The notes under the pieces: model-generated
What the model was told of the DNA's origin: nothing
Seen by the model: the letters and a program-made list of their open reading frames with translations, nothing else
Database searches by the model: none
Program-made: the position numbers and the translations under genes
Source of the DNA: Podospora anserina
Taxonomy: Eukaryota
DNA: 64,000 nucleotides
Assembly (NCBI GenBank): GCA_017654855.1
Contig: CM030337.1
Location: forward strand, 4,030,001 to 4,094,000
Direction of reading: 5' to 3'
Shown: positions 32,170 to 62,998 of the stretch, in pieces
Numbering within the stretch: position 1 is the first letter of the stretch
Layout of the letters: every line of letters begins with the position of its first letter

Positions 32170-33390
32170 ATCGAAAGGATCTACCGAGTGTGGAGGTAAA
32201 TACGACTTAAAACACGGCCTTGGCGCGCGTGGGGAAAACGTGGGAGGACACAAGCAACGAGAATCCGATCTGCAGTGCACCGTTCGTGCATGAGACGGAG
32301 GAGGTAATCAAGGCTAGATGGTCAACTACTTCATCCTCCAAACCTACGGGTTCCGATGCTGGTATTTGAAGGATGAAATGGTCTCACTGTCCACCACCCC
32401 CAGCTCTACACAAACCGAACTCAACTGAGCTCAGAGTGGAAAGGCGTGAAGCCGAGCACACCATTTCCCTCTTCCCCTGTCCTCGTTGGACGCCACAAGC
32501 GTTGGCAGCATGTAAGAAAAAGGCTCACATCTATCCGTCAGGACCAGGCTAGTGAATGCCTCACGCCTTCGCCGGGCAAGCGATGTGGTTCAATATTGAA
32601 AGTTCCAACCTATCAAGTTTGGTGGCTCTAAGCGAGAGACGCCTCCTGTTGGACGAAAACAGGACAGTCTGTGATTCCTTCTGGTCAGATCGACATGATA
32701 CCAGCAGGCTGGTAGCTGGATATGGTTAGGCGATGCAGGAACAAGCCTCATTGCTACATCTGAGCTCAGCTCCTCTGTCAGGCGAAAGGTGGGTAAGATG
32801 ATACGTTCTCCTGCTCGGTAACCTATCAGATGAACTGGAGTTCTATGGGACATCCGGTGACTGAGCCGGGGAGCCGGCCAACGCGGATCCTGATTCCCTC
32901 CGGGACGCTTCTGGGACCATGGATCCTCCGTCCTATCCACCTTCCAAACATAGCACCCTTCGAGAGCATTCGACAGAAAAGCTTTCCATGGAACTTGGCC
33001 AATCGTCTGGCTCTGATAGCGAATGTCACGGAGCTTCTGTTCCGTATTACTGCAGGCCAACAAGGGCATTCAAAGTTACCTGGGCAGGGATTGTGCACGC
33101 TCAGCCCGGGTGACCACAAGCCGAGGAACTGAGTCCGAAGGCAGACGTTGACACGGTCTACCTTCATGCTGCCGCTGCCACACGCGTCAATGTCGTGAGC
33201 CAATCCCATCAAGTCAAGTCTGAGTCCAATCACTTATCTTTCCTGCTGTTTTTCTGAGCGGAATCTGTCTGCAATCAGGGGTACAAGGTACATCAAAGAA
33301 AGTGATCGTCCAAACATGCTCGATACGAAGAGCATCGGCGATAACAACAAGCGTGTCCATTGGATGTCGCTTTGTGGCTGCAGGATTGCT

Positions 33391-33433
33391 TCGGCCGATG
33401 CAAGTGCAAGGGGCCTGGTAACCTTCGGCCGAA
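33391..33433. promoter_or_regulatory. Two TCGGCCGA palindromes (33391, 33425) upstream of the first P450; putative Zn2Cys6 sites
   Basis: Same motif found upstream of other cluster genes. Confidence 0.6.
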
Positions 33434-33776
33434 AGATGGCTTTGGCTTGGCTTCGGCTTGACTTTCGGGTAGGGCTGAGAACAGGGGGTGGGGGGGCAAT
33501 CAAAGCCGTTGTGCCTGTGTTCTCTCGGCCCGAACTGCCACGGGCCGAAGCGCAGATCCGATCGTGGTCACACCTTGGCGGTTGACGACAGCGTTGCGAG
33601 TTGCGCCGTCTTACTAGACGATGTGCCCAAAGTCTTGGAAGAGGGGTGGAAGAGGGGTCTTCAGGAAAGACACGATGTGCGCGCCCGGATCTGCTTGCTA
33701 CTGACGGGTACCCGGGACAGCACCACTCCTCCAACTTCACGACAAGCCAGACATCACCAACTTCACCGTCGACACA

Positions 33777-35570
33777 ATGGATCGTCTCACCTCCCCCTTC
33801 GAAGATGACTCCCCACACCGCTACCTCATCGCTTTGGCGACCGTCCCAGTTCTGCTATTCGCCCTCTACCAGTACCTCCTCCCCAAACCCATCCCCGGCA
33901 TAGCCTACAATCCCTCCGCTGCCAAATCCCTCCTCGGCGACGTCCCCGAGATGATAGCAGAAGTAAGCCAAACGGGCGAGTTCCGCGTCTGGTGCGCCAA
34001 GCAAGTCCGCAAGATGAACTCCCCCATCTGCCAAATCTTCATCAAACCCTTCTCCCAACCCTGGGTGTTGCTCTCCGACTTTCGCGAGTCGCGCGATATC
34101 CTCACGCGGCGTCACAAGGAGTTTGACAAGTCGAGCTTTTTATCGGATGGCATGGCCTGCATGGGCGCGTTCCACGGTATTTACATGACCGATCACAAGT
34201 TCAGGGCGAACAGGCAGCTGATTCAGGATTTGATGACGAGCACGTTTCTGAATGGGCACGTCGGGCCGGCGATTTACAACAAGGGGTCGGAGCTGATGAG
34301 GTTGTTTGAAATGAAGGTGAGACTGGCGAGGGGGAGGCCGTTCAGTGTGAAGAAGGACTTTGAGTACGCCTCGCTGGATTGCATGTTGGAGTTTGCGTTT
34401 GGGAGGAACTGGGTTGATACGGCTGTTGGGGAGCAGGTCAAGGTAGTGGGAGGGTTGACGGAGGAGGCCCTGGTTATTCCGGTGTCGGTTGATGAGCCGG
34501 TCGACTTTCCGCTCGGTGAGATTGTGGACTTTTTGAAGTCGGTGTATGAGGCGCCAGAGGTTGTGGAGAAGACGATCAATGCGATCATGCCGAAGCTACA
34601 GACATGGTGGTGGTCGCAGCAGGGGTGGTACAAAAAGATCTTTGATGACAAGGAAAAGGCGATGAAGGCCCAAGTTGCCATCGGAATCAAAAACTTTCAA
34701 CAGGGCAAGATCGAAACGGGTGTGGAGCATATGCTGATGAGAGAAGCTGCTCGGGCAGAAAAGGAGGGAAGAGAACCTGATTTTGAGAGCCAGGTTTTCA
34801 GAGATGAGGTTTGCTACTCCCTTGTTGTCCTTCTTTGATTTGAGCTAATAGTAGGAAAGCTATTTGGAGATATAGTGGGAGGTCACCACACCACGTCTGG
34901 TGCCATGATGTGGCTTACCAAGTATCTCACCGATGACCCCACGATTCAGTCCAAGCTGAGATCTGTTTTGCACTCAACACTATCTGCGGCCCACCAAGAA
35001 GGCAGGCTGTTTACCTTTGAAGAGATCCGCCACGCCAAACTGCCCTACTTGGACGCCATCATTGAAGAAATGCTTCGCATCAATGCCGTGCCAGTTACCC
35101 GTGAAGCCGTGGTTGACACCACTGTTTTGGGGTGTCCGATCAAGAAGGGAACGCAGGTCTTCTTTATGTCGAACGGCCCAGGCTTTTTGTCGCCTTCTTT
35201 CCCGGTGGATGAAGCAAAGCGAAGTGATACATCCAGGTTATCTAAACGGGCCAACGACTCTTGGGATGAGAGGCAGGACCTGGCAAGATTCGATCCCGAG
35301 CGTTGGCTGGTGAGGAAGACAGATGGAACAGGTGTCACGGCTGATGATGTCGACTTTGATGGCGCAGCTGGGCCTCAGCTGGTGTTTGGTCTTGGGCCTA
35401 GAACATGCTGGGGCAGGAGGTTGGCGCACATGGAGATGAAGGTGATCATTGCCATGTTGGTGTGGACGTTTCAATTGGAGAGAACACCACCAGAGCTCTC
35501 TGGATATGGTGGCTTGGAGGGTATTGCTCGTGTTCCCAAGAAATGTTATGTTAGGTTAGTGAAGCTGTAG
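33777..35570 (+). CDS. Cytochrome P450, intron 34809-34859
   Basis: N-terminal TM plus LPKPIPGI; EMLR (ExxR), FDPERW, FGLGPRTCWG heme motif. Confidence 0.92.
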
Positions 35571-35690
35571 TAGCAGTTGGGTACAAAGAAATATGGGGAA
35601 CCATTTCAGTGGCTCGCATAGCTTATAGTGACTTTTACATCCATTGTCCTGCTTTTTTATCGGACACGTGTGTTACCAATCCATGTTCAG

Positions 35691-36575
35691 TTAATCAGTC
35701 ATACCACTCCCCCTGAGCAAGCTCTCATACCCCTGCTTCCACACCTTTTGCCCCTGCCCGCCAAAGCCGACCCCAATCTCATCATTGATTGACCCATCCT
35801 GCTTGGTGTTCTCCAACAGGTCAAAGAACTTGTCGATGTATTCGTCAAGCGGCATAGGCTGCACCGCCTTCTCAGGCCCGCCCTGCAGCGCATCGGTTTG
35901 CTCTCTGTGATGAGCATTCAGGGGTGTGTCGACATAGGGCGGTGCCACTTCCACAACGCTCATTCCTTTGACACCAGTCGCCTCAAGCTGCCAGCGTAAG
36001 ATCTTGCAAAAGGACGCCACGCCGGCTTTGGAAGGGCAGTAGGTTGGGTAAAATGGAACAGGGAAATACGCCAGCGAGGAGCTCGTAAGGAAGATGTTGG
36101 TTTTGATGCCTTGTTTTGCAAGAGACAAAAGATGGGCGGCAAAGGCCTGAGCGACAAGAATGGGTGCAACCAAGTTGGTTGTTAACTCTTGAATGGCTTC
36201 CTGGGCGAGATTGGGGGGTGGGTTTTGGAAGATGTCGTAGTGGTTTTGGATGCCGGCGTTGACGAAGACAGTGTCAAGCTTGGGAAAGTGGCGGAGGATA
36301 CCGTCAACTTGGGGCTGCAGTGAGTCGAGCTGGGTGAGATCCCACTGCGAACGAGGGGTTAGCGACAAGTATCATGGCAGTGTTGGTGGGGCAATACGTG
36401 CAATGCGGTACTCCAGGCCTTCAAGCTCGTTGACAATCTGCTCTAATCTCTTTCTGTCTTGCTCCCTTCCAGTTACGATGACCTGTTTACCCAGGCTATG
36501 GAATCGACGAGCTGTAGCCTCGCCGATCCCGCCAGCTGCTCCGAGGATGAGAATGGTGTTGATACGGGACGACAT
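35691..36575 (-). CDS. Short-chain dehydrogenase/reductase (DltE-like), GC-AG intron 36401-36345
   Basis: LGAAGGIG, VNAGIQ, SSSL, YCPSK (YxxxK). Confidence 0.88.
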
Positions 36576-36808
36576 TTCGTGGTGTAAGTGGGGTCACATC
36601 AACGGTCTGCGGAGTGCTGCGGGGAGGATTGGTGCCATATGTTTACATCAAGATAAGGTAGATACAAGATAAATCACCTCCAGCTCACCCCACAGCGGCC
36701 AGGTGCTGCCCGTGCTGATACTTGGAGTAGGACCTTCTACTCCACGCCCACTGGCTGGTACTACGCTGCAGATCGATCGGCTTTATTGGCCAAAGACAAG
36801 AAGTAATG

Positions 36809-36816
36809 TCGGCCGA
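36809..36816. promoter_or_regulatory. TCGGCCGA palindrome ~234 bp upstream of the SDR
   Basis: gtcggccgaag read directly. Confidence 0.55.
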
Positions 36817-37120
36817 AGACGAGTGGGGCTGTCATGAAGGGATCTGACCAATCGGAGCCCTACGTGGCACTTGTACCAATTCTTTCCTAAAGCAACGTCG
36901 CTTGAGGACATGGAGCAACCGAAACATGGCGGGTGCTCTATGACGTCTTTTCATTGGACACGTGAAAAAAGACTTGTCACAGAGAACCGGGCATTGGGCA
37001 CAGTGAGAGCCGTTGGGTGTCAATACATCCAATCATTGATTCAAGAAGTCGTAACACAAATAAATACCAGACACAAGGCTACCCCAGCCTGCCTCCTCCT
37101 CCTCCAGCCCAAACACTGTC

Positions 37121-38490
37121 TCAGCGCTTGAGATAAACCTCCAACAGTCCCAACGGTCCATTGTCAAAGACATTCCTAATCTCATACCGCGAATCAGCCT
37201 CCTTCAGCAACTGCTCAAACTCGGCCTTGGTCCTCTGCTTTCCACCACAGTTCACAATCATGACCGAGTCAACCTGTCTGACGACACGCTCTTGGTGACG
37301 GGGCCAGACACCAGGCTCGGGGATGATGATGTCGTTGATCAGCAAAGGGGTGTTTGGGCTGGAGTTTTCCAGGCCAGGAACGAAGCCCTTGAAGATCCTG
37401 ACGACGTCCTTGTCAGCCCAGTTGTGGGTGCACTGGCGGATCAAAAACGCGGCCGCGTCCTTGACTGGTTGCGGGTCGAAGAAGCTGTGCTTGGAGTAGG
37501 TCACTCTGTCGGCGAGCTCTGGCGAGAGGGATTCCTTGCCCTCGGCGAGCATGTCGGCGTTGCTGTCCTGCACGATGCACTTGATGTTGGGGTAGGCCTA
37601 TTCGAGGTCAGTGACTAGCAAGTCCGTCGCTAACTCTCACCAAGAAAACAAATACCTCAGCCAAGCTCTTGCTGATGTGGCCATTGCCTCCTCCACAGTC
37701 AACCACTGTGCCGTTGAGAGCACCCCAGTTGAAGCTGTCGTAGAGAAGGTAGTCCAGGTGTCGGTCCATCTTTCGGAGGCCAGCCATGGCTTTGGCAAAG
37801 CGTCGGGCTTTGGCGGGGTCGTTCTTGTAGAACTCAAAGATGCCAACGCCGTGGCGGGTCACGAAGGGGTTGAGGTTCTGGTGGCATTCGTATGGGTGAG
37901 CCTTGAAGGTGATGTTGCAGTCGGCGGCGGCCTTGAGCATCTCATCGAGGCTGTAGTGGACCACGGAGCGGAGTTCCTCATCTTGCTGCATGAGGAGGGA
38001 GGTGTTGCTGTGGGAGATGACCCTTGGTTGGTGCTCCTCAAAGATACGATAGGTCATCAGTTGGCGGATGATGCGCCCCGTGCGGTCCGCGTCGAGACCG
38101 GCCTTTTCGGCAAGCTCATCGATGGTGATGCTTCCATGCGCAGGGACGAGTTGGAAGAATTCAAAGTCCAGGGCAACCTCCCCATGTTAGACGTGGCCGC
38201 CGGAGATTCAGGGAGACACATACCTGAACGAGACCAAGATCATAGCCGGTGCAGCAGAACTCTCTCAGCCATTTCCGGGGACCGTCAATGAGGCGTTGTA
38301 GGTCCTCTAGACTGGTCTTGAGGCCGGCGTGGATCTCACGGTATTCTAAGGTGGCCGGAGGATCTTGAGATTCGAGTGAAAAGGTGGGAGCCACCAAGTT
38401 GTTTGCTTGGAGATATTTTGTGAGATCCTGTGTGAGGTTGAGGATGTTTTGGGCCAGGCCCAGGATAGATTCGGATCCTTGAGTAGCCAT
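37121..38490 (-). CDS. O-methyltransferase (fungal Methyltransf_2 family), 2 introns
   Basis: VVDCGGGNGH SAM motif, HSFFDPQP, LIRQCTHNWAD, GGKQRTKAEF; N-terminal dimerisation helices. Confidence 0.92.
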
Positions 38491-38881
38491 GACGATAGGG
38501 GTATGTATCGCAATTGGTAGCAGATAGTCTCACAGACGCCCGCGAGCAGTATGATTCTTTATGGCAATGTGCTGACTTTTGATGGCTTTGTTTTGGTCTT
38601 ATTCACGAGTATTGATATCTCGAAAGCATCACATGCTAGAGGCAACATCGCCCGATACGTCTCTCATGTCATGTATGCCCCTGCGCACAGTGCAACATCA
38701 AGTCTTCAGGGCCCTGCCGGCATGGTTCATGCAGGGCGGACCTCCCCCGCAGCGTGGCAAAGCCGGCATCGGGCATACCCGCCCGGGATTGTATCGCGGA
38801 GGCAGTATTCATCCGTGCTTATCAGTCCCTGGCTTATCAGGCTAAGGTGGTACGGTAGTGATGGATAAGGTACACGAAAGA

Positions 38882-38895
38882 GCTTCGGCCGATGC
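38882..38895. promoter_or_regulatory. GCTTCGGCCGATGC in the divergent OMT/PKS promoter (identical 14-mer at 33388-33401)
   Basis: Direct sequence comparison. Confidence 0.65.
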
Positions 38896-39243: not shown

Positions 39244-42200
39244 ATGGCCTCCAATTCAGAACCCCAACGCGAGCAACATGAGCCAGTTGCCATTGTCGGC
39301 ATGGGTATGTCCAATGCCATTTCCTTCTACCCCTTCAAGCCACCCATAGAGAAAAGAAGGCCCTGCTAATCCTTCAACCAACGTATAGGATGCCGTTGGC
39401 CCGGCGGTAGCCACACTTCAGAACAGTTCTGGAACTTCCTCTGCAACAAGGTCGATGGCTGGAAAGAGTTTGACGACCCACGCTTCTCCTCCAAAGGCTT
39501 CCACCACCCAAACTCCGACCGCCCAGGAGGCTTTGCCATGAAGGGGGCGTTCCTGGGTCGGGATGATGCTAGGCTGTTTGATCACAGCTTCTTTGGGATG
39601 ACCCAACTAGAGGTGGAGACAATGGACCCTTCACAGAGAAAGCTGCTCGAGTGTGCTTATGAAGCCATTGAGAATGCTGGCGAGTCGCTCGAGAGTATAT
39701 CTGGGAAACAGACTGGTGTTTTTGTTGGCAACTTTTGCCTTGAGTAAGGATTTGACTTTTACCTTCCACGCTATAAGATACTAGACTGACCAGAATGAAG
39801 CCATTGGACACTGCAGTCACGAGACTGGGATAATCCGAGACCGTATGCCTTTGTGGGAGCAGGCACCAGCATTCTTGCCAACAGAATCAGTTACATCTTT
39901 AATCTCCAGGGACCAAGGTATGATCCACTGACCCACGCAATCTTGTGGTCTATTGCTAACATATTACTGCAACAGCTTGACCATTGACACAGCGTGTTCG
40001 AGCTCCATGTATGCCGTCCACTGTGCTGTCAACGCTATCCGTGCCGGAGATTGTGACTCTGCTATCGTGGCTGCAGGCAACTGGATAGCAGACCCTACGG
40101 TCCAGATAGCCCTCGATAAGCTCGGTGCTTTGTCTGCGTCGTCGAGATGCCACACCTTTGATGCCAGAGCCGAAGGCTATGCACGTGGAGAGGGGTGGGG
40201 AGCCATCTACCTGAAGAGACCCTCGACCGCTTTGGCGGATAACTCGCCTATCCGAGCTTTTATTCGAGGCAGTGCTGTCAACTCTAATGGGAGGACTGGT
40301 GGAATCACGAGGCCCAGTGCTCTCGGCCAAGAGACGGTGATTCGTGAAGCATATCGCAATGCTGGTGGCCTTCCGTTCAAGGACACCAGTTATTTCGAAT
40401 GCCATGGGACAGGCACTTATGTGGGAGATCCAATCGAAGTGTAAGGATGATCTTCCAAACCATGAACTGTGTTGGTTGTTAACAGAATATTGCAAAAACA
40501 GTGCGGCCGTGGGCAGGGTCTTTGCCTCGGTGCGAGAGCCAAAGGACCCACTCCTTGTCGGATCAGTCAAGAGCAACGTGGGACACGGGGAAGGTGCAAG
40601 TGCTCTGGCGTCCATCATGAAAGTGGTGCTGGCTCTGGAGCGTGGTGCGATTCCGCCCGTTTACGACCTCCAGACACGCAACCCCAACATCGACTTTGAC
40701 GCAGCCAATGTGCAGCCCGTCACGGAAGTTACACCGTGGCCCGAGGGAAAGATCCGACGTGCGTCTATCAACTCATTCGGATACGGTGGTGCCAATGCGC
40801 ATTGCATCATCGACCATGTCACCAACGTCTGGCCGGATTATGTCGCTCCTGGCGTTTTCAACAAGAGCAGGGCGGTGACCAACGGTCATACCAACGTCCA
40901 TGCCAATGGGCATACAAACGGATCGACAAACGGTCACACAAATGGCAATGGCAATGGCACGTCAAATGGCCATCAGAACGGTTCTGTTCAACACAGTCCC
41001 GTCGTCAAGATCAAGACGACTGCCGTGCCCGGGGCCAGCACTCGCCAATCTGTTCTGCTGCCTCTCTCAGCTCACAATGAACAATCCCTCAAGCTCAACA
41101 TCGAAGCCTTGGCCAAGGCTGTTGACCAGTTCCCCTTGGCAGATGTCGCATACACACTCAGTAACCGTCGGTCTAAATTCGCCCAGCGATCCTTTGCCAT
41201 TGTGGACAAGGACAATGTCGCCAACGACCTTCTCAGTGTAATCGACAAGAAGCCGACCAGAGCTCCGCTGCATACCGCCAGTCTTGGATTCATCTTCACT
41301 GGACAGGGTGCTCAGTGGCATGCTATGGGGTCGGGCCTTTTCCAGTACCGCATTTTCCAAAACACCATCCAGCATCTTGACCATGTCCTCGGCACGCTCT
41401 CCAACGCCCCTGCGTGGTCGTTGTACGACATTCTCTCTGGAAACTGCGATCCCTCCTTGATCCAAACCGCCGAGGTCTCGCAAGCTGCCTGCACGGCTGT
41501 TCAAGTCGCCCTTGTCGACCTTCTTGCTTCCTGGTCTATCCGTCCTTCAGGTGTGGCTGGGCACTCATCTGGAGAGATCGCTGCTGCCTATGCTTCTGGT
41601 CGGATCACTGCTGCCGAGGCCATAGTCGCTGCTTATCTCCGTGGCCAGGCTGTCTCCAGAAACAAGCAAACAGGTGCCATGTTGGCTGTCGGGCTTGGAT
41701 TCGATGACGTTGTCAAATACCTCGACGGCAAAGAGGACGAGGTCAAGGTGGCTGCCATCAACTCCCCTGGTAGCGTGACCCTATCCGGAGAGGAGCCCAC
41801 TGTCGACAGCATTTCGGCGGCCATGACAGCGGATAGTGTGTTTAACCGGAAGCTCAAGACCGGTGGCAATGCCTATCACTCACACCACATGATCCCCATC
41901 GGCCGTGAGTATGTCGAGCTCTTGACCGAGGGGACCGAGCACCTTCGTAAACTTGGCCTGGCCTCGTCCAATGATGCCGCCCGCTACCAGCCCACACTCT
42001 GGGTCTCCTCCGTAACTCCCGCGAAGAGCACATCCGGTCTCGGCAGTGATGATCTCGCTTCCTACTGGAGAGCCAACCTCGAGTCCCCAGTTCGTTTCTC
42101 AGAAGCGGTGGCAGGTCTGGTGCAGAACGCCGACGGGGTTCGTATCCACGCTCTTGTCGAGATTGGACCTCATCCTGCGCTCAAAAGCCCTCTTGAGCAG

Positions 42201-45200
42201 ATCCTGAAGGCAGCGGGTGTCAAGAATGTTGCGTATGCTGGGTCGACACTGAAGCGAGGAGAAGGCGCTCAGACATCGATGCTGCAACTTGCTGGCTCGC
42301 TCTTCGCTTTGAACAGTGAAGTGAACATTGCGGCCGTGAACGCGGTTGAATCTTCCCACGATGGGAAGGGAGATCTGGAGCATGGCGTTACATGTGTTGA
42401 CCTACCACCGTACCGGTATACCTACGGTGGTCTCAACTACCACGAGAGTCGGGCAAGCAAGGAGTATCGCTACCGATCTATTCTCCGACACGATCTTCTG
42501 GGATCCAAGATTGCGGGCAATGCCAAACTTCGACCACAGTGGCGAAACATTCTTCGTCTCAAGGACGTTCCCTGGCTCGGTGACCACAGGCTCTTGCCTG
42601 ATGCTGTTCTGCCTGGTGCAGGGTATCTGGCCATGGCCATCGAGGCTATTGCCCGTATTCACAACGAGCTACCTCCCAATCCCCCCATCGAAGGCTTTGT
42701 GCTCGCCGACGTATCCATCAAGAAGAGTTTGGTCATTCCAGAAGACGATTACGGCGTTGAAGTCTTGACCAGCTTGGAACTTGTTGACGCGCAGACACCA
42801 GCGTGGGCCACCTTTTCCATCAGCTCCGTGGGCAGAGAAAGCGAAGAGTGGATGGAACACTGCACTGGTAGAATCAAGGTCGCTCTTGAGGGCTCAGATG
42901 ACTCCGTGGAGAAGACTGCTGTTGCGCCCACCACCCAAAGGGCTCTTGATGGGCGGGTTTGGTATGAGAAGTTTGCTGAAATTGGTCTCGGTTACGGAGA
43001 GACCTTTCAGCCAATCTCTCATATCCGCAGTGATCCCACATTCAACGTCGCAGTGGCAACCCTCAACTTGCGGTCCACAGCCGGGCTTATCAAGGGTGGG
43101 GAGTCGGCCTATCCCTTGCACCCTGCTTCCCTTGATGGTGCCATTCAGCTGGGTCTGATCGCCTGCCACGCCGGCCGTTCTGAGGACGCCACCACGGCAT
43201 TCGTGCCGGTCCAGCTTCCCCGGCTCTATTTGTCGAACAATATCAATGACTTGGCCGGAGACAAGTGCACCGTCGTCGCCCATGGCGAAAAGCGTGGTAT
43301 TCGTGGTGCCCATCTTGACTTGCAGTTGCTCGGGCCTAATGGTGAAGTGATGCTTGATGCCGAGGGTCTTCGGTGCATCAGCTATTCCAGTGCAGCCAAG
43401 ACCACCGAGGACAGAACCTTTAGCAGCCCCTTCACTCGGCTGGTATGGAGGCCTGACATCCGCACTCTGCGCAATGGTCGTGCTCGCGAGATGTACCCTC
43501 CCCCAAGGGATAACGTCAAGAAGGCACCATCGTGGGGTATCACCAACAAACTAGCCCACTTTGTCGTTTACAGCATGTACATGATGTACGGCACGCTCCC
43601 TGAGGATGACATGCCTAAGCCCTCAGGGGATGTTGGTCATTTCTTCGACTGGATCAAGCGAAAGGGACAAAACGACAACTCTGAACTCATGCAAGAAGCT
43701 CGGGAATATGCCAAGCAAGGTCTTCTTCTCAACAAGATCGATGAGCTTGTCAGCGAGGCCCCGGATGTCATTGAAGTTCAGGCTGCCAAGTTGCTCCATG
43801 ACAGCATGGCCGACATTCTCTTTGAGCGCAGGACCGGTATTGATGTGCTCATCAGTGAAGGTCTCCTGACCCCATTGTACAAGGAGGGTCTCCTCATGAC
43901 GGGTATCTATCCTCAACTTCACAATGTTCTCGCTGGTGTTGCTCATAGCAACAGCCATCTGCGTGTTTTGGAGATTGGTGGAGGTACAGGTGGCGCCACC
44001 CGGATTGCCATGAAGGCCTTCAATGGACCGAATGGTATCAAGTCTTACAAGGACTACACCTTCACCGACATCTCGGCCGGATTCTTGTCCGGAGCCCGCG
44101 AATCCATGGCCGACTTGCGGGATGTCAACTTTTCCGTGTTTGACATTGAGGTTGACCCTGTTGAGCAAGGATATGTTGAGAAGAGTTATGATCTTATCAT
44201 CGCCTGTCAGGTGCTTCACGCCACCTCCAACATGAAGAGGACTTTGACCAACTGCCGAAGGCTTCTCAAGCCTGGTGGACAACTCGTTCTTGTTGAGACG
44301 ACGGAGAACTTTATCGTTCCAGGTGTGGTGGTCGGTACCTTTACGGGCTACTGGAGCGGTATCCCTGACGGTCGAGTGGATGCGCCTTTCCAAAGCCTTG
44401 CATCTTGGGACAGGACTCTCAAGGAAGCTGGGTTCCAGGGGCTAGATGTTGTCTTGGACGACTTCCCCGAGCCTCACAACACAACGTCCGTCATTCTCTC
44501 TACTGTACCACCAGAGGAGTTTCCTGTCTCTGGAGAGGGCACTGTTCATGTTCTTCATTCGGGCAGCGAGGCACCTGCACTTCTTCAACACCTTGCTCAG
44601 GAGTTCCAAGGCCGCGGCATTACTGTCAAGCCCGGCACCTTTGACGGCATAGGCGAGCTTCCCTCAGAGTCTCGCGTGGTGGCCCTCTTCGACGATGGGC
44701 ATCTCCTTCTCAACGCAAGCGAGGAGGACTTCAGCAGGTTTCAGAAACTGGTCAGGCAGTCGTCAAGTCTGGTGGCGATCACGAGCTCTGGAGTAGCCAA
44801 GGGGCTGAATCCAGATGCTGCTGTCATTCCGGGACTGCTCCGTGTGCTCCAGAACGAAAATCCCGGGGCTCAGTACATGTCTGTTGACATTGCGGCCGAC
44901 AATTTCACCATCGAAGCGGCCGAGGACCAGCAACACTTTGCCAAGTGCATCGCCGACTACGAGTCTGAGCTTTATGGCGCTACTCGGTCTCCGCCGCTGG
45001 ACGACCTCGAAGGCACCCCCAAGGATCGTGAGCTTTCCTGGCAAGACGGTTACTTTTCCGTCTGCCGTCATGTCCCTGATACAGGGTTCCACTCCCAGCA
45101 TGGCCTGGATAGCAAGAAGTTCAAACCTGATACCATGCCTCTGGGCAGCCAGGGTGCGGTGAAGGCGACATTTGAGACTCCTGGTGTGATCAACTCATTG

Positions 45201-50320: not shown

Positions 50321-50664
50321 GTGTGGCAATGAAAAGATGATGACTGGAAGTTGAGTGTAGCTGCCAGGCCGAACGGACCCCCCCTTTATCTGGAGGGGAT
50401 TTCTAACACAAAACCTCCTCCAGTCAGATATATTGACACTGATTACGTACCCTGCCTTCCTGTAGAACCTTCGCTTCGGACCGTGACACTCTTCGCCTTC
50501 CATAGGAACCTAGTAATATTTCGGTGCCACAGAAAAGGTCCTTCCTTGTGGCAAGTTGTAGGTCTTTAATTATACATGTATTCTTGTTACTTTGCGCTTT
50601 ATAATCAGTGTCTATTACCTAAATGACTTATTTCCAAACATGCCTTACCGCTCGCATGGTCAAT

Positions 50665-52510
50665 TCACCCGCCCTGAACCTTTGCAATGTCTGTGCTCGC
50701 AGAAGTCCCGTCACTCGAAGCAGCCGCTTCTTCATCCTTCTTCTTCTTCGCTACGCCTGGTTTCTTAATCGGCTTCCAATCAAGCACAAATGTGACAAGA
50801 AACGCACAACCGGCAGCAGCCGCACTGATGTAGTATGTGTTCCTGAGGCCCAACACATATGCCGCAAGTACCCGTTCCACAGCTTCTGGACGCCCGATCC
50901 TTTCCAACACCTGTCGAATCTGCGATGCGCCACTGTTCAGAATAATTGCAGGGTCAATTCCTGGAGCATCCCGCAGCATGTTGGTCATCAACCCGTTCTG
51001 AAAGACAGTTTGCGACACGGCAATGAATACCGCTCCCCCGAATGCCTGGAAGAACTGGACACATGCCGTGGCTTGCGCGATCAGTTCTTGAGGTAGACAG
51101 TTTTGCACGACGACTATTGGTGCCTGGAAGCAGACACCGGTTCCGAATCCCATGATGATTTGGTATCCGAACCACTTTGCAAAGGGGGTGTCGATCCAAA
51201 ACGTGGCAATCAGTGCAGCGCCAGTCGTGAGAAAGGCAGTTTCGACAAACATGACGATGTTGTATGATCCGATGGCCGTGACGATTATACCACTGAGCAC
51301 AGACGATACGACCATGGCTATCAAGAAGGCGAGAAGCTTGATACCTGCCTCGACTGCATTGTTGCCCTGAACAGCTTGGAAATACAGTGCTGTGACCAGC
51401 TGTTAGTGAGTTGGGTACCTCGCCAAGACACCGAAAAGACTTACACAAATAATAGACCATCGGATAGAATGACGCGCCAAAGAACATGGCAAACATCATA
51501 GCCGCAAAGACGTTTCTGTTCCTGAAGAACCGGGGTGGAATGATCCCCTTGTCCTGCTGCCAAACCTCGACTCCCGCAAACACAGCACCTCCCACACTCG
51601 CCCCCACTAGAAGGCCAATGACTTTCGAATCACTCCACGGATACTCAAGCCCTCCCCATTGCAACGCCAAAAGCAGCATGATCACGCTGGGAAGCATGAT
51701 TGCCGTGCCTACCAGATCCAGCTGCAAAACCCTCTCCATCCTCCCCTGCGCAGGCAAACCAGAATCAGGCTTCTTGACCCGGAGAAAGAAAATAATGACC
51801 GCCATCGCCACGCCTCCAATCGGGAGATTGATGTAGAAGCACCACCTCCAAGTCACCTTCTCGGCAAAAACACCGCCCAGCAACGGCCCGGCCACGCTTG
51901 ATATCCCCCAAAGCGCACCAACCCCACCGAAAGCAGTCGGTCTTTTCCGGAGCGGCAGCAAGAGTCCAACGATGAAAAACGACCCGCTGAATATGCCTGC
52001 TGTACCCAACCCTGCGATCGCCCTGCCAACGATGAACACTGTCGAAGTCGGTGCCACGGCTGAGATCAGACTCCCCAGCTCAAAGAGAAAGACGGCGCTC
52101 AGGTAGGTGATTTTGATGTCAAAGAGTCGGTAGATTGTTCCGTAGAGGGGTTGAAGGGCGGTCATGGTGAGGAGGTAGGAGGCGCCATACCAGCCGATGT
52201 CGCGGGTGGAATCGAACTCGGACGTGATGGATCCCAAGGCCGGGGCGATAATGGTCTGATCGAGGGCGACGAGAAATATGGCGAGGCAGAGGGATAGGAG
52301 GACCAGCCAGAGTTTGAGGCCGTGAGGGTATTGTGACTCGTCATCTTCTGAGAGAGCATCGTTTTCGGTGGGTGTGATAGTGTGTCCTGAGGCCGTCATG
52401 ATGGCTGATGGAGCCAACTGTGGTCCATTGCACCCGCTTTGGGGACCGGCGGTGAGGACGGTGGTATCTGGGGGAAGCTCATCCTGAAGAGGTTTTGCGG
52501 TGGCAGCCAT
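50665..52510 (-). CDS. MFS efflux transporter (DHA2/14-TM toxin-pump type), 1 intron near 51445-51390
   Basis: LVALDQTII, GWYGASYLL, GRAIAGLG, GPLLGGVF..TWRWCFYINLPIG. Confidence 0.93.
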
Positions 52511-52877
52511 GTTGGGCAGCGTGTGGTTGGCCAAGATGTATAAGCATAACAGATTTATTTGGTCATGGCGAGGTTAACTAAAGTAGGTCAGTTGACTAAA
52601 CAAACACTACCGCGAGGCGGAGGGAAGGACACTAGGAAACAACCACTCCAGATGTGAGAGAATGGGCACCATCGTGTTTCTGGGCTCGCGTCTGTGTTGC
52701 GGCCCGCTCCACATTCACACCAGCGCATTCGAGTCTACGTCCAAGCTTCCCGGACAGCACCAATGGCAGAAGGGAACTCGAACACATTCTCCATATCCTT
52801 TCCACGTCGACACTCTTAATAATCAACAAGCTTCTCTCACCCCCTATGAGACATGGGGTGTTAGGTGTACACCATGT

Positions 52878-52887
52878 TTCGGCCGAA
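52878..52887. promoter_or_regulatory. TTCGGCCGAA palindrome ~370 bp upstream of the MFS gene
   Basis: Read directly. Confidence 0.6.
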
Positions 52888-53547
52888 GGCATCCCTGGGT
52901 TTCGGCTTTAACCACGCCGCGAGTTTCTAATCTGTCAGGGGCAGCGTCCGCTACGATCACACCCCTGTGTCAATATCGAGCTGTCGTGGCTGCTGCGCCG
53001 GCCCTAACCCTGACAACTGGACTGAACCCCTGACCCCTGAATCACTGAGCCCATTATTGTTGGCTGATGAATGAACGAGGAGACTTCTCAAGCCATTATC
53101 CAAGAAAGAGATAATATTGAGTCGAAGCTAGATCTGCCATTCTGTTTCAAGCGTCATCCATAATCAATATCAAACTTTCTAGATGCCTTCCATCTTTGGA
53201 CTTGGAAATGTGGGTTAGGGGTGTGTTGCAGGTCGGCGTCACCAACACGATCGCATTGAACCCGAAGACATGGGACTGGGTAGGTAGATGATCGGCACTA
53301 CCTACACTGAGGTTCTGGGTTTGAAACATGCTTTGTGCAGGGCATGCACATATGGGTAGTGTCCATCAGAGCCACACCCAGGCCAAGTGTGAGACATCGA
53401 GGTTACCAAAAGCCAGCTAAGGACGGTGGTGAAGGTACAAGGGATTTCTTGCAGACAGTTGGCTATATCCACAGCAAACTACGGGTACCTTACTCATCTC
53501 CACGTCTTTGGACATTCCTCCCCACACCAAGATCCGCTAAGCTCCCG

Positions 53548-55401
53548 TCACCCCTTAATCACAGCCCTAACACCTTGACTGCCCCACACCGGGAAGGGGT
53601 TGAAAAAGTCATGGTCCCAAGCAATGTCCGCTTCTGTTGTTGCGTACAGCTCCATGGTTGGGAACACTCGATCTACCAGAAGAGCTAAAAGGACGTAAAG
53701 CTCACAGTACGCGAGGCTGGATCATGTCAGACAGGGTATCTCAGAAGACGGAGGAGGTTGGATGAGGTTACTCACTTGATACCAATACAACCTCTGCTTC
53801 CCTTGGAGAAGCTCAGCAACGCTCGGTCAAGGTCCTTCCGATGCTGATTCTTCTCATCGAGCCACCGTTCCGGAATGAAGGAGTGGGAGTCGGGGAAAAT
53901 GCTCTCGTCGTGATGAGTGATCACGGCAGACATGCCGATCGCATAACCCCTGGGAATCACGTACTGGGCCTTTTCTTCCTTGTTGGCGCCCGGTCGCTTC
54001 CAGGTCCCTTGATAGAAAAGGTCCTCGGTAGGAGCAACGCGAGAGCTGCGGCTGGCGAGACCATACGACAACCTCAGACCTTCGTAAAGGACAGCACCCA
54101 AATAGGGAAGCCCCTCCAACGTTTTCCAGTCTGGCACTTCGCCATTGTTTGCTCTCACAGCCTCCCTCACCTCATCTGTTAGTTTTCTCAAGATCTCCGG
54201 CTTCGTCAGGACATGATAGGTGATGACCGTCAACGCCCAGCTGACCGTTTCCGTGCCTGCCACGAAGAGGGAAAAGCCTTCTTCCACCAGGCGCTGGAGC
54301 GTCTTTTCGGCTGGCGGCAAATCCTTGTTTTGCAAAACCGAGCCGAAAACTGTTTTCTCGCTGTCGTCAACACCCTTGTCAAGATTTGCTTGAGCACGCT
54401 TGACGTAATTTGGCATGTCGACGATAAGCACGTTGAAGAGAGTCTCCATGTCTTCTGACAGACGGCGAGTGAACCTAATTGTCTGTCAGTTCGGATGCAA
54501 AATTGGAAGTCAAGAGGCCAAATTCTTACATGGCCATTGCAAACCCGGCGTGTTTCAGCCATGGAATGAAACGAAACAAGTACACCAACTTCAGCTGCGC
54601 ATACAGAGGCTCTCGGAAGTTTGGCTCCCAACCTTTCTGAGCTACCAGTCCCAAGTTGTCACCGAGGCAGTAGCCCGTGATGACATCGGTGGTAAACAAG
54701 CTCAAGGCGGTAGTGACATCGAACGGGGCCTCTTTTCCGACCGTGAGAATCTTGTCACAGAGACGCTCGGCCAGATCTCGGATGGTTGGCTCAAGACGGA
54801 AGACTTGGGCGCGAGAAAAGAACTTGTTCAGGGCGTTTCGGCGCACGCGGTGGAGGTCGTGGCTGGTTGTAGAAAAGGTCGCGTTTTCGGCACTGAAAAG
54901 GGTTTTGAGTCAGTGATTGGGAACTTCAAGATGAATGTTGGCGTATTCTAAACTCACACCCCACTGCCTCGCACTTGATGCATTGGCTTGTCTCGCTTTC
55001 TGCTGCCCCCTGCGTATATCTCGTCAATGAAGTGACGATCAGCACAGTGGACTTCGTGAGGATTGATCCGGACGATTGGTCCTGGAATAGTGTCAGCCAT
55101 CGAATATTGAACCATAGACTGGCGCAAATCACAAACCATATTTATCGTGCATCTTCTGGATCTGCTTGGTGTAGAGCCCTGACCTCACAACATCGTACCA
55201 GAATTCTGGTATGTATGTGGCCCTCGATAGCAGAGGTCCAGGAATGTGCGCAAGAGGGTGGAAAAACAGATTGTAGATCACCTTGACCAGGTGATAAGCC
55301 AGCCATGTCCCAGAGGAAACAAGAACAAACGATGTCAATATTTCGCCCGCTGTCCTGTTTCCACTGTAGGAGACAAACAGCTCTTGCAATGACGGTGACA
55401 T
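53548..55401 (-). CDS. Cytochrome P450 (trichodiene-oxygenase-like architecture), 4 introns
   Basis: [52 protein letters not shown]; last exon ends at TGA 53550-53548. Confidence 0.92.
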
Positions 55402-55786
55402 ATTGTTGAATAGTGAGGCTCAAATGAGCAGGTGATTTCAGTTCGAGACAGTGGCTAGGTAATCTAGAGCCTCAAGAGATAGACATGTCGGATATGTAAG
55501 ACCCAATCTAGCACATGAATGCGGGGGGTGGGGGGGGAGCATCTGATAGACTGCCATGCAATGAGTACAGTGGCTATCTGCAAAGCGAAGCGACTAGGAG
55601 TGTGCTAACCAACTCGGCAGAAAATTCACCCTTGCTGAAGGGAATTTAGCCCGATCTTACTTTGAGGCTGCTCACACTGGATGTCTCCCGGACCCGCAGC
55701 ACGGAAGATGGACCACCCCGCCCCGGCCCGTGGACAGGGGTCCATCGGGCATCAGGCTGCATAACGTAGATAAACATACTTAGCAT

Positions 55787-55794
55787 TCGGCCGA
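55787..55794. promoter_or_regulatory. TCGGCCGA palindrome ~386 bp upstream of the second P450
   Basis: Read directly. Confidence 0.6.
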
Positions 55795-57735: not shown

Positions 57736-60236
57736 ATGAGTTCCCGAAAACGTAGGTCAATCGCAAGCTGCTCCAACTGCTATCTCAGAAAGTTAGTAAT
57801 TGCCCCATACTTATCTCATCACTGACTGACTGACACACATTGTTGCAGGCAAAAGGTGGGTTTCACTGCCGATTCCGACCCCCGTCCCCGCCCTACCGCA
57901 GAAGCCCGTCCCCTGTTTGCTCCCCGTTAGCGCTACGGAGAGAAGAGAGCCAGCGCACTAACACCGCTAAATGCCCTGTAGTGTGATCGCACCAAGCCAG
58001 TTTGCACCTTGTGCAATCGACGTGGTGTCCCTGATGATTGCGTTTACTACTCCAACAACGACAGCCACACGTCCAGCCCGACCGCCGTCGAATCCCAACC
58101 CGAAGAAATAATACACAACCCAAGGCTTTCTGTTGCTCATGTTGCCAGACCCATCGACAAGCCAATACCACCCGGAAATGCCTTTGGCAGCGGTTTGGAG
58201 CGGGGGCCCTGGAGCGCGCGACACGAATGGTCAATATACGTCAGATCGTTAACTCCACCAACACCGTCGTCGAGACCTGTTCCGTCTCTTGCAGACTCGT
58301 TTGGATACTTCCAGTACTCCAACAGTAATACATTGGCATTGATTCAAAAGGTTGGTACCTGACTACCTTGGTTGGACACTTCTGATCGTTCTTTTCGTCT
58401 ACTATCTAGTTGGGAGCAGATCACCATGATCCTTCTTCCACCGCGACAACGCGCGAGCCGACCCTGTCCCCCGAAAGCACCGACGATGTTCACCGCATCC
58501 TGGAAAGAATACCCGACCGCCAAATCCTCGACTTCCTGGTCCAGTACTTTAGGACCGAGGTGAACTGGATGGACCACTTGGTGCATATCCCTTCGTTCTA
58601 CCCGCAATATCAGGCATGGTTTGCGCTTGAGCAAATAACAACCGTCGCCGAGGTCGACTTTGCGATTCTCGTCTTGCGTCTCTGCTCCTACACCTTGCAA
58701 TTCCTGCCGTCTCCCTTCTATACACTGGACAAGATTCGTGGAGTACTGCTGGCCGAGATACGGACGTGTTGCGACGAGACAGCCGACAGCCTCGAGAGCA
58801 TCAGCACACAGACAGACAGCCGCGGATCTCTCGTTAGGACCCAGTCTCTGGCCTTTTATGCATTGCAGTGCCAGATGGAGGGGAAGACGCGGGGTTTCTG
58901 GGAGGCTTTGAGCCGCGCTATACGGGTAGGACAGGATGCCGGTATCCATTGCGACGCTGTCAGTCATCACAAAGGCATCGACAGGGTAGAGCGGGAGATG
59001 AGACGGAGGACATACTGCAACCTCTTCGTCTGGGACTCGCTCCTTTCACGCCAACTGGATCGTATCCCGTTCATTCCTGGCCGCATGGAGGATGCAAACT
59101 GGCCAGACATACGTTTACTTCAGCCACCACATCAGAGAGACACCGAAGGGGAAATCCCAAGTGGCATGGAGCCCACCATTGCCGAGGCGCCAGATCCATT
59201 CACAGAACGCCTCCTTCAGGCCAAGTTGGCCGACTTTTGGCGCGGTGCCGGGGTGGGACAGCGCGCCGATTACGACATGAGTCTCCGAGAAGATCTCTAC
59301 GAAGTCTTCAGCCGCGAGTACATCGACCGACTTCCTCCTCCTTTCGCCCTCCACAACCCGGATGAGCGGTGGGATGATCGTTTTCCCAAGCTGCGCCTCC
59401 AGCGTAAGCTTCTGCATATGGCCATTTACGACTCAATATTGTGGAATTTCCGGCCCCTCCTTCTTCGCAAGCCTTCTCCCCTACCAGCCTACAAGTCCGT
59501 CATGTTGAGCTGCCAAAAGCGAAAGCTGGCGGCAGCGGCACTGTGTGCGCTGGAGGCAGTGACACAGCTTCACGCGCTGCTTCACGGCTGCCACACACGC
59601 CTCGCCAGCATTGTCGTCACCACCTTTGAATCGGCTGTGGTCCTCGTATATCTGGCAGCTGACCAAACCTTCCCCGAGGACTGCCCCCCGCAGCATATTT
59701 CCCCGCCGGATGCCTTCAAATCGGACCCTTTGCAAGAGGGGATCTGCAAGGTCTCGCTAACTGTAACGCTGCAAGCGATCCAAGGGGCCCTGAAGCGACT
59801 CAAGATGCTTGCCGAAGTGAGCAGCATGGCAGACGTTGCAGTCACCACTCTGATACGCCTCATGAACAAGGTGGCGGTCTTGGCTACAGAACAGGAAGCA
59901 CCAGAGCAGATCCACCACGCTTTCAGCAACAGGGCGGCAAGGCCGATGGTGCTTGGCACTACGCGGCCGCACGCCTCTTCCACCACTTCACTACCAACAT
60001 CACAGATGAGCAGCATATCACTACCACTGGCGACCTCAGCACCTGGAGCTAACAACATTAATCCATGGCTTTCAGAGACCATGTCAGACATGAGATCAGT
60101 GGACGAGTACATGTCCGGAATGAACGAGGCTATACATGCTACCTCCGGCTCAGGAGATATCTCAGGCACCTGGCCTTCTTTTGACCCGTCACAACTATAC
60201 GGACCGGGGGTTTTTGGAATTTTGGAGGAGGCATGA
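57736..60236 (+). CDS. Zn(II)2Cys6 transcription factor with fungal-specific TF domain; exons 57736-57791, 57849-57855, 57982-58350, 58410-60236
   Basis: Spliced CSNCYLRKQKCDRTKPVCTLCNRRGVPDDCVY; middle-homology motif AIRVGQDAGIH...EMRRRTYCNLFVWD. Confidence 0.92.
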
Positions 60237-61535
60237 ATTGGAAGATAAAAAAGTTACCTGGGTACAACAAACAAGACTTTTCACACACACTCGCATACCT
60301 ATTCTTGTTTCTTTTGCAACTCGTCTCCACCGTTACTGCACGAACACAATATCACCTTTAGCCGGAGAGCGGACCGGAGTGGTAATCCCGAAGGCTGTTG
60401 GCCATCTCATCGGCGATAAGAAGACAGTGCCAGCAAGGAACAAGGCAGCCATACACACACCCCCCACACACACAACGACGAACAAAGCAATGCATCGACG
60501 ATCGTATCCGCACAGCGAGTCGTCCCGTGTTCCCAGAGGGATTTTCATGATTCAAGCAATAAATACCACGATGCAAAAGATAAGCATAAAGTTTCTCGGG
60601 GAAACTTTGAAGTGCGAACAAAGAGGGGGACCAATCACGGCCAATAGTCGGCATGGAATCGTCGTTCCTCGATCAAAAAGCAGTTGCCTCTTTGAAGAAT
60701 ACACGCCATCAACATCGATACACATGTAGGCTACAACGCTCCCGGGAGGACCTTCCTGACTGGGTTCCTTGTCAGCCAAAATCCGCCGGAAGTGAAGCCC
60801 CGGACCCTGGTCCGCGGGAAGACGGGATGGGGCGTCTTTTAAACAGCCTTGGCACCTGGGCTCCCCACCTTGCGCTTGGGGGTTTGGCAGTCAATGCGGT
60901 CAAAGTTCCGCTGTCATTCCGCCCTCGTTCCGTGGTGGAAGCAGCGGGGTTTAAGGCGATGGTGAACCGATTGGCCTTTCTTTGCGAAGTTGGGTGTCAG
61001 AAGACGACGTGACGACCAAACAAACAGTCACAAGGAATTTCTCTCTCAAGGTGTCAGGACCCCAGATCAGCATGGGTCCAGCGTAACCCCCGTCGTGATG
61101 GCCGCTAATGCTGTGCTAAAACACTTGTCGTTGACAGATCCACCCTAGTTCCACGCCGCCGACCTTATTTTGACGACTTGGACTTGGCTTGCACTTGGTG
61201 GATGGTGAATGGTCCAGCTGTCGTCTTCTGGAATGTCATGGTGAGAGCCTCATTCGACTTTCACATGGCGAAAGATTACCCGAGCGCATGCGCTACCCAG
61301 CCTTGGCTGTGACCCTGCTTCCTGCGTGCCAGATCATGCCATTGTAGCCATGCGGAGATCGTGCGCTCGTGATTGGCATCTTGACGCGAGATGACTTAAA
61401 CCTTGGTGGTGATACAGCATTTGGTGTTACACGGCATGAAGCCGAAGAAATGCACATGGGATGAACTGTTTCTATTCCACGTTCGGCCTGCCAGCATGTA
61501 TTCACATGCACCTCGTCATCACCATTACTGGCCAT

Positions 61536-62416
61536 TCACCAAGGCGCGTTGGTGCCATCGTACACGTTTGCCCTCCCCGGAGCGGGCTTGTCCCAGCCGT
61601 CAACGAATACCTTGGGTAGCTTCCCGTTGACTTCTTTTTGGCTCTTGTTGAAGATGATGTCGAGAGAGGCCTTGGCGCCCTGCTCAGCGGTCAAGTCGGC
61701 CATGTCACCACCTCCGAGCTCTGTCTTCATCCACTATTTCCGGGCATTAGCATTCATCATCATTCACGGGACGCCGAGCAAACTTACGCCAGGGCAGAGA
61801 GCAATGAAAGTGAAGCCATCCTTCTCGTGGTCAAGAGCCCACTGCACGGTCAGAGCGTTGAGAGCAGCCTTTGTGATCTTGTACGCGGGACCAGGAAACT
61901 GAACGAAATGCTCTGCCAGACTGATGGAGCCAAGGGTAGTGGAAATGTTGGCCACCTTCTTCAGCTGGCCCTTTTCGAGAAGTGGGAAGAAGGCTTGGGT
62001 TACCCAGTGAACGCCTTGGACGTTGACCAGGAAGCTGGAAGAGAGGTTGTCCCTTTGGAAGTGTCAGCGCTCGTTCAGGAGGAACCGATGGATCAAGAAG
62101 GCACTCACATGGACTTTGTCCCTTGGAACGCATATTCACAGATACCAGCATTGTTGATCAGGACATCGAGACCCTTGCCGCCGAGCTTGGCCTCTGTCTC
62201 GGCAGCGGCCTTCTTGATGGACTCTTGGTCTGTCACGTCAAGCTTGACCCATTCGGCACGGCCAGAAGAGCTGTTGACAACTTCACTGAGGGTTGAAGAG
62301 TCGCTGCGGGAAGAAGCGATAATTTTGCTGACTTTGGAAGTGGGCAGAGCTAAAAGCTCCTTGACCAGAGCCAAGCCGAATCCTCTAGAGGCACCGGTGA
62401 TGAAGAAGGAAGCCAT
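61536..62416 (-). CDS. Short-chain dehydrogenase/reductase (CsgA/C-factor-like), 2 introns
   Basis: ITGASRGFG, LDVLINNAG, NISTTLGS, YKITK, LCPG|WMKTELGG. Confidence 0.9.
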
Positions 62417-62990
62417 GGTTGTGAGTTTGTGTATGCAAGCTTGGAAATGGTGTCGATTTCGTGCGTGCGTTAGTGAGTATGAGATTTCTGGTGGTTGTGT
62501 GGGCTATAGATGGACCTCACTCAGAATATGCAGTGGAGGAAATATGGGATACCCGATAATGTATAGCGGCCAAGCCATATCACGGTACGCATGCGGTTAG
62601 GGCCAGAGACGGAAATGCAGGCCATTTCCATGATCCCAGGATTTGTCAGCGAGGGGGTGGTTGAGAATGACCAATGGTTATGGTGGGGAATATGCGGCTC
62701 GATGGTGGATGATCTGCCCTTCTTTGTTTGTTTAATGGATGCATTTGCGACCGTCACCAACAAGTTTCCAACATGGCAAATGAGGATGAATACAGTTCTA
62801 TGATTGGACAAAGACAACGGGAGGATGCGTGGAAACTTTCGACCGATGCCCGATGGTTATGTCCGATATCAAATCGGATTTCGACAAACGCGATCATATC
62901 ATCCCACACCCCTGCGCTGCCTGCTTTGTTTTGGCCACAATGGCGGGTCAGGGGTTGAGGCATCGCTGTACTTGTCGGTATCAAATTTGT

Positions 62991-62998
62991 TCGGCCGA
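62991..62998. promoter_or_regulatory. TCGGCCGA palindrome in the divergent SDR/methyltransferase promoter
   Basis: Read directly; ~250 bp from ATG 63248. Confidence 0.6.

Follow-up and report, generated by a model that had tools for sequence, protein, structure and literature searches.

The locus examined here raises the question of whether one short palindrome, TCGGCCGA, repeated in front of the genes of a highly reducing polyketide synthase (HR-PKS) cluster of Podospora anserina, is a genuine promoter element, and which protein would read it. The window, meaning the whole analysed stretch of 64,000 nucleotides (GenBank assembly GCA_017654855.1, contig CM030337.1, positions 4,030,001 to 4,094,000 of the forward strand), contains eight copies of TCGGCCGA, at 15106, 33391, 33425, 36809, 38885, 52879, 55787 and 62991. 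Seven of them are intergenic and spread over six 5'-intergenic regions of the cluster, where they precede eight start codons, at 215-395 bp for seven ATGs and at 575 bp for that of the second short-chain dehydrogenase (SDR-2). The evidence described below indicates that the element, TCGGCCGA or in its extended form TCGGCCGAA, is probably an upstream activating element, bound most likely by the cluster's own Zn2Cys6 regulator, encoded at 57737-60236. The individual copies are listed below, with distances measured from the first base of the site to the ATG.

33391..33398: copy 1, TCGGCCGAA on the minus strand, 386 bp upstream of the ATG of the first cytochrome P450 (P450-1)
33425..33432: copy 2, TCGGCCGAA on the plus strand, with the P450-1 ATG 352 bp downstream
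36809..36816: copy 3, 234 bp upstream of the ATG of the first short-chain dehydrogenase (SDR-1) and 312 bp past the stop codon of the O-methyltransferase (OMT)
38885..38892: copy 4, between the divergent OMT and PKS genes in a shared promoter of 751 bp, with the ATG of OMT 395 bp and that of PKS 359 bp away
52879..52886: copy 5, within the 10-bp palindrome TTCGGCCGAA, 369 bp upstream of the ATG of the MFS transporter
55787..55794: copy 6, with the ATG of the second cytochrome P450 (P450-2) 386 bp downstream and that of the Zn2Cys6 transcription factor (TF) 1,950 bp downstream
62991..62998: copy 7, in the divergent promoter of SDR-2 and a methyltransferase (MT), with the ATG of SDR-2 575 bp and that of MT 215 bp away
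15106..15113: copy 8, within the beta'-COP (SEC27) gene, regarded as fortuitous

These positions and the total agree with the first-pass annotation of this DNA, which had reported the palindrome by eye and had placed its only additional copy in SEC27 coding sequence, as was found. Positions 33388 and 38882 carry the same 14-mer, GCTTCGGCCGATGC, also as previously described.

The significance of the repeated word was evaluated both for its number and for its placement. In 100 dinucleotide shuffles of the window, TCGGCCGA occurred 0.95 times on average, matching the approximately one copy that had been expected at the outset, with a maximum of 4 and none of the shuffles reaching 8. An order-3 Markov background predicted 1.67 copies versus the eight seen (p = 3.5e-4). 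Nevertheless, the raw count fails multiple testing because, under the same background, TCGGCCGA ranked only 21st among the 25,527 8-mers observed in the whole window, and about 21 such outliers are to be expected among that many words. The placement was tested in the six intergenic regions holding a gene 5' end, bounded by ATG and stop positions only and amounting to 7,280 bp (11.4% of the window), with the approximately 155-bp 5' spacer of an NLR-like gene left out. Seven of the eight copies fall within this cluster 5'-intergenic DNA (binomial 1.8e-6), and the Poisson probability of at least seven copies in 7,280 bp was 1.5e-9, or 4.9e-5 following Bonferroni correction over 32,896 8-mers. An unbiased enumeration of every 6-, 7- and 8-mer in the six regions yielded 5,428 distinct 8-mers, of which only TCGGCCGA and the overlapping CGGCCGAA were found in all six regions. 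The runner-up, CTTCGGCC, is another overlap and reached four. In 1,000 dinucleotide-preserving shuffles, the most widely shared 8-mer occurred in three regions in 382 cases, in four in 607, in five in 10 and in all six in a single case. The promoter placement of TCGGCCGA, unlike its raw count, is thus beyond chance. A coincidence of chance or composition, devoid of any regulatory role, may be suspected from the GC-rich window (49-56%, with CGGCCG present 31 times), from the 21st rank in the whole-window test and from the fact that the motif was chosen post hoc, by eye. We regard this explanation as highly improbable, given that enumeration and permutation leave about 1 in 1,000 after look-elsewhere correction, that the Poisson value survives Bonferroni correction, and that the sites share a ninth base and lie at a narrow range of distances from the start codons.

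Each of the eight copies joins two inverted CGG triplets directly, with zero spacer (CGG-CCG). On one strand, each copy is extended to TCGGCCGAA, a coincidence with a chance of 0.41 per site and of 2e-3 for the seven cluster sites; the orientation of this ninth base showed no consistent relation to gene direction. Within ±40 bp, the sequences around the copies show no relationship to each other (identity 27% on average and 39% at most), which rules out that the copies derive from a repeat or mobile element. Variants with one mismatch were not enriched (24 in the window; 3 of the 14 located right of 28 kb were intergenic). The element is therefore strict, and an extended regulon operating through degenerate copies or extra half-sites was ruled out on the same ground. 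Taken together, these features describe a discrete element that is restricted to promoters and built of two CGG half-sites.

The gene order was established from Pfam scans of stop-to-stop open reading frames (ORFs) combined with start-codon mapping, which bore out the gene layout, start codons and promoter positions of the first reading. The following genes were located between 30.4 and 64 kb.

30421..32169, minus strand: BBE-type FAD oxidase, intact, three exons
33777..35570, plus strand: cytochrome P450-1, ATG 33777
35691..36577, minus strand: short-chain dehydrogenase SDR-1, ATG 36575
37121..38492, minus strand: O-methyltransferase (OMT), ATG 38490
39244..47396, plus strand: HR-PKS with the domains KS-AT-DH-cMT-ER-KR-ACP, ATG 39244
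47587..50509, minus strand: NLR-like gene with a SesA N-domain, a weak AAA_16 match and TPR, no motif copy in front
50665..52512, minus strand: MFS transporter, ATG 52510, intron 51390-51444 seen in RNA contigs
53111..55403, minus strand: cytochrome P450-2, ATG 55401, transcript from about 53111, with four introns visible in RNA contigs
57737..60236, plus strand: Zn2Cys6/Fungal_trans factor (TF), ATG 57737, between P450-2 and SDR-2
61172..62418, minus strand: short-chain dehydrogenase SDR-2, ATG 62416, introns 61734-61787 and 62052-62107 seen in RNA contigs
63206..64000, plus strand: methyltransferase (MT), ATG 63206, cut by the window end

A copy of the motif lies within 600 bp of the ATG in eight of these 11 genes. 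The three exceptions are the BBE oxidase (1,222 bp), the TF itself (1,950 bp) and the NLR-like gene, in whose 5' spacer (50510-50664) no TCGGCCGA was present. The NLR-like gene is spread over different reading frames, and the junction between frames near 49500 is spanned by a low-depth unspliced contig (48727-49722), as would fit a frameshifted pseudogene. Between P450-2 and the TF, the region 55908-57349 gave low-depth spliced transcripts, including a plus-strand transcript with a 165-nt GT..AG intron (56358-56522) and minus-strand introns at 57028-57078 and 57291-57348; no Pfam domain was detected in the ORFs located there.

The transcription of the motif-bearing genes was assessed from sequencing contigs and from a published microarray. 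The four runs that cover 44001-64000 represent RNA, as their contigs skip GT..AG introns. PKS, MFS, P450-2, TF, SDR-2 and MT were all found under spliced contigs in runs X15, X17 and X19, and X22 contained contigs for TF, SDR-2, MT and part of P450-2. Parts lacking coverage, which carry no evidential weight, were the NLR-like gene over 48003-50003 in X15, X19 and X22 (depth 2-6 in X17) and the 3' part of PKS in X22. For the left half of the cluster, X15 to X18 shared 0.73-0.79 of the sampled words of 33000-42999, close to the 78% of this segment that lies outside ATG/stop-delimited intergenic DNA. Contig ends, which give only a weak hint of transcript ends, were situated close to the motif: those of MFS, from runs belonging to two studies, at 52752 and 52750, which leaves 127 bp to copy 5; the starts of MT at 63088, 63085 and 63049, 51-90 bp beyond copy 7; and those of SDR-2 at 62657 and 62756, 235-334 bp from copy 7, with one X19 contig crossing the motif to 63039. 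Single RNA contigs spanning 58408-62657 were also observed to run from the TF gene into the opposite-strand SDR-2, and the 3' ends of these convergent transcripts probably overlap around 60.3-61.7 kb.

The array data were taken as per-gene rows from supplement file 2 of PMC3125171. The genes from BBE through MT were assigned to Pa_6_10290-Pa_6_10390, a mapping inferred from the ortholog tag QC764_610370 (TF), the label 'polyketide synthase' of Pa_6_10330, the gene order and matching expression ranks. The gene order suggests that PKS is Pa_6_10330. The mean intensities (A) were as follows.

Left genes: BBE 5.5; P450-1 9.7; SDR-1 7.7; OMT 8.4; PKS 7.6
Right genes: NLR-like 4.4; MFS 9.7; P450-2 10.1; TF 9.2; SDR-2 12.8; MT 11.1

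The eight motif-bearing genes gave intensities of 7.6-12.8, and the motif-less BBE and NLR-like genes were at array background. The rank order SDR-2 > MT > P450-2 > MFS > PKS was common to array intensity and X17 contig depth, which supports the gene-number mapping, even though contig depth is a poor measure of expression. Two of the four array comparisons were concordant in direction for all eight motif-bearing genes, which were up in fpr1- versus fmr1- (+1.2 to +3.12) and down in mat+ versus fpr1- (-1.1 to -3.36). The flanking Pa_6_10280 moved in the opposite direction. The contigs and the array thus indicate that the motif-bearing genes are transcribed together. A 2011 microarray study reported that expression of Pa_6_10330 in mat- mycelium exceeded that in mat+ mycelium 3.9-fold and counted the gene among those activated by FMR1; the deletion mutant of this gene mated normally. 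SDR-2 and MT had the highest cluster signals in both contig depth and array, and their contigs were present in the run without a PKS contig; their promoters may receive input beyond the shared motif.

The expression data also bear on a repressive role of the element. Since many fungal clusters are silent by default, and TF RNA was present in all four runs, so that TF abundance alone appears not to set cluster output, TCGGCCGA might serve to silence the cluster, as a repressor site or chromatin boundary bound by the in-cluster factor or by another protein. We consider this very unlikely, as the element-bearing genes are expressed, whereas the two genes lacking the element were at array background, and as Sol4, of the solanapyrone cluster, is a positive regulator according to a review.

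The Zn2Cys6 factor that the first-pass annotation had placed at 57736 proved to be a true member of this class. Direct reading of the DNA gave CSNCYLRKQKCDRTKPVCTLCNRRGVPDDC, which matches the six-cysteine signature CX2CX6CX5-12CX2CX6-8C, and the resulting N-terminus, MSSRKRRSIASCSNCYLRKQKCDRTKPVCTLCNRRGVPDDC, carries the canonical signature coded across two introns. Exon 1 ends at 57792, followed by a 7-nt micro-exon (57850-57856) and by exon 3 starting at 57982, with a further intron at 58349-58407. The splicing of the micro-exon was confirmed in RNA contigs of two runs (joint 57792>57980, with CAAA between the sides), and the large exon carries PF04082 (Fungal_trans, E = 7.7e-9). The DNA-binding domain of this gene therefore exists and is transcribed. 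The lysine aligned with Gal4 Lys18, which we take to be the CGG-contacting residue in the Gal4 structure, is kept in the TF and in 23 of the 23 homologs that have the full signature.

The TF was 44-46% identical to database proteins named 'transcription factor sol4' (E <= 1e-110), these names being automatic, and 44% identical to XilB of Penicillium crustosum. Homology to these database-named members suggests that it belongs to the Sol4/XilB family. Among the 120 TF homologs listed, 23 possessed the full six-cysteine signature, which was then highly conserved (CxPCYTRKQKCNRxYPCNHC...), and five more, XilB included, started mid-domain. The annotated Podospora model, which is flagged as low quality, begins downstream of the zinc cluster. 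In a review, Sol4-type factors are said to have 'lacked a DNA-binding domain', a description that may stem from faulty annotation in at least some members of the family.

The identity of the PKS indicates the type of the cluster. It was 98% identical to a Podospora pseudopauciseta protein, 85% and 79% to Triangularia proteins, 67% to one of Chaetomium fimeti and 66% to AmpB of Beauveria (Amphichorda) felina. In the amp cluster, AmpB together with the methyltransferase AmpC yields the alpha-pyrones amphichopyrone A/B and udagawanone A, and AmpB is 52% identical to Sol1 (PMC9146101). Judged by its AmpB-like PKS and by the OMT divergent from it, the Podospora locus appears to be an amp/sol-type alpha-pyrone polyketide cluster, and its predicted product is probably an O-methylated alpha-pyrone related to amphichopyrones and solanapyrones. 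Homologs of TF, PKS and BBE oxidase were located on the same contigs in many fungi, as judged from equal contig sizes, e.g., in T. verruculosa (50,070 bp), a JGI assembly (119,525 bp), C. fimeti (1,119,322 bp) and Talaromyces islandicus (309,386 bp), which indicates a widely conserved linkage. For the BBE oxidase, no Podospora protein was present among the 120 homologs listed. A metagenome scan with an alignment of 12 TF sequences, in a collection that does not include the 119,525-bp JGI contig, returned three contigs of 1.8-6.6 kb that encode TF relatives with 41-46% identity. A paper on Podospora biosynthetic gene clusters does not mention this one.

According to the mechanism that we favour, the two inverted, unspaced CGG triplets would form an upstream activating site read by the cluster Zn2Cys6 factor. 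One site would act per promoter, apart from the two located before P450-1, and a single site would serve both genes of the divergent pairs OMT/PKS and SDR-2/MT. No motif copy was found within 1.9 kb upstream of the TF gene, which is therefore not autoregulated via this element. Its transcription was nearly flat across the four array comparisons (+1.33, +1.12, +1.2 and +1.01). With no proximal site and fairly constant transcription of the TF, the output of the cluster would hinge on activation of the TF protein or on chromatin, rather than on autoregulation. Both the binding of this particular factor and the activating effect of that binding we infer from the arrangement described above.

The main competitor of this mechanism is a different trans-acting protein, either another Zn2Cys6 factor or a broad-domain regulator, that binds the element while the in-cluster TF acts elsewhere or indirectly. 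CGG sites are recognised by many zinc-cluster proteins, several Schizosaccharomyces pombe factors sharing CGG repeats, and PKS responds to mating-type regulators on the arrays while the TF barely moves. XilB had little effect on its own cluster. Binding by another protein is nonetheless the less likely option, a minority possibility in our judgement, as the element is confined within the 64 kb to the promoters of this cluster (the intragenic copy aside), the TF is tightly linked to PKS across many fungi, and an in-cluster Zn2Cys6 factor with a palindromic site per promoter is the paradigm established for GliZ.

Binding and activation by the in-cluster TF must be weighed against a number of observations that speak to the contrary. 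The data do not distinguish this factor from other zinc-cluster proteins as the binder of the motif, and the specificity control consisted of the remainder of the 64-kb window, with its one intragenic copy. The raw count of TCGGCCGA held only the rank given above. Inspection by eye revealed no heptad or coiled-coil stretch after the TF zinc cluster, and binding as a dimer is thus only a possibility. In mat+ versus mat-, PKS changed by -3.91 and was weakly followed by P450-1 (-1.22), SDR-1 (-1.12) and OMT (-1.27), but not by MFS (+1.11), P450-2 (-1.0), SDR-2 (+1.03) and MT (+1.05). This split response indicates that the genes do not form a tight regulon under all conditions, and the fold changes of genes other than PKS were small (1.1-1.6). 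Neither TCGGCCGA nor CGGCCG was found at any of the three metagenome TF loci on their contigs of 1.8-6.6 kb. In the related xil cluster, activation of XilB raised the product only slightly, and the authors of that study suspect other control. Finally, the BBE oxidase gene, a conserved cluster member in other fungi, lacks a proximal motif copy, its ATG being 1,222 bp away. Because of this gene, the motif is not a clean marker of membership. The first-pass annotation had proposed that the palindrome defines the cluster, and this idea was retained in part: the inclusion of SDR-2 and MT fits the RNA contigs and the array, and the NLR-like gene is motif-less and at array background, whereas the BBE oxidase, which had been overlooked, has no copy nearby. 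Of its wider interpretation, the promoter element and the real Zn2Cys6 factor were upheld, and the clean delimitation of the cluster was not.

Most secondary-metabolite clusters of the genetic model Podospora anserina are uncharacterised. To have a defined cis-element together with a candidate regulator offers a handle for cluster delimiting, reporters, activation and product finding. Among the papers listed in a literature search, none was seen to present TCGGCCGA as a fungal promoter element, the matches to the bare 8-mer being primers and other unrelated uses. We regard the motif as credibly new; the kind of system, an in-cluster Zn2Cys6 factor with promoter palindromes, is a textbook one. 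For the Sol4/XilB family, this would be the first binding-site proposal, as none was found in print. A far-reaching and rather doubtful extension is that TCGGCCGAA is the sequence recognised throughout the Sol4/XilB/Amp family of regulators, which are located beside Sol1-like alpha-pyrone synthases across Pezizomycotina and whose repute of having no DNA-binding domain would be a micro-exon annotation artefact. If this were true, a single short motif would reveal where many silent pyrone clusters really begin and end, and how they can be activated.

Close relatives of the system exist in alpha-pyrone clusters. Sol4, of the solanapyrone cluster of Ascochyta rabiei, is described as a positive pathway regulator, and XilB is the regulator of the xylariolide D cluster of Penicillium crustosum. 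Both resemble the Podospora TF in being encoded beside Sol1-like HR-PKS genes for alpha-pyrones. The Podospora factor differs from the description of Sol4-type proteins in the review in having a complete DNA-binding domain versus none. The portions of the texts examined give no binding site for either Sol4 or XilB. The amp cluster of Amphichorda felina resembles the Podospora cluster in its PKS, at the identity to AmpB given above, and in the OMT adjacent to it in both; A. felina also encodes homologs of the TF and of the BBE oxidase on one contig of 2,973,164 bp.

Among regulators with a described site, GliZ was the model invoked in the first-pass annotation. The GliZ site TCGGN3CCGA is described for gliotoxin cluster promoters of Aspergillus fumigatus and Dichotomomyces cejpii (PMC7022936). 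The two systems share an in-cluster Zn2Cys6 factor, palindromic promoter sites and the outer bases T-CGG/CCG-A. They differ in the spacer, which has three bases in the GliZ site and none here, and in the nature of the evidence, the GliZ site having genetic and in-vitro support versus a sequence-based proposal in Podospora. Moreover, the zinc cluster is all that the families of the two factors have in common.

Short palindromic zinc-cluster sites repeated across co-regulated promoters are also characteristic of AflR, with the site TCGN5CGA, and of Pdr1/Pdr3, with the element TCCGCGGA. The Pdr element likewise has no spacer, but it is everted (CCGCGG), whereas the Podospora site is inverted, and the AflR half-sites are TCG and CGA with a 5-bp spacer.

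The first-pass annotation had regarded a zero-spacer inverted CGG pair as a possible Zn2Cys6 site type, and a precedent exists in S. pombe Toe2. The Toe2 motif, discovered from chromatin immunoprecipitation, is the inverted CGGCCG, and Toe1, Toe3 and SPBC16G5.17 have the everted CCGCGG (bioRxiv 10.1101/2024.08.20.607873). Toe2 is unlike the Podospora factor in that it is no regulator of a secondary-metabolite cluster, and the window sites have a flanking T/A and a ninth base of their own. The two share a binuclear zinc-cluster protein, actual for Toe2 and probable here, and a site with two inverted CGG triplets and zero spacer, so that the Podospora element adds an example from a filamentous fungus to this architecture.

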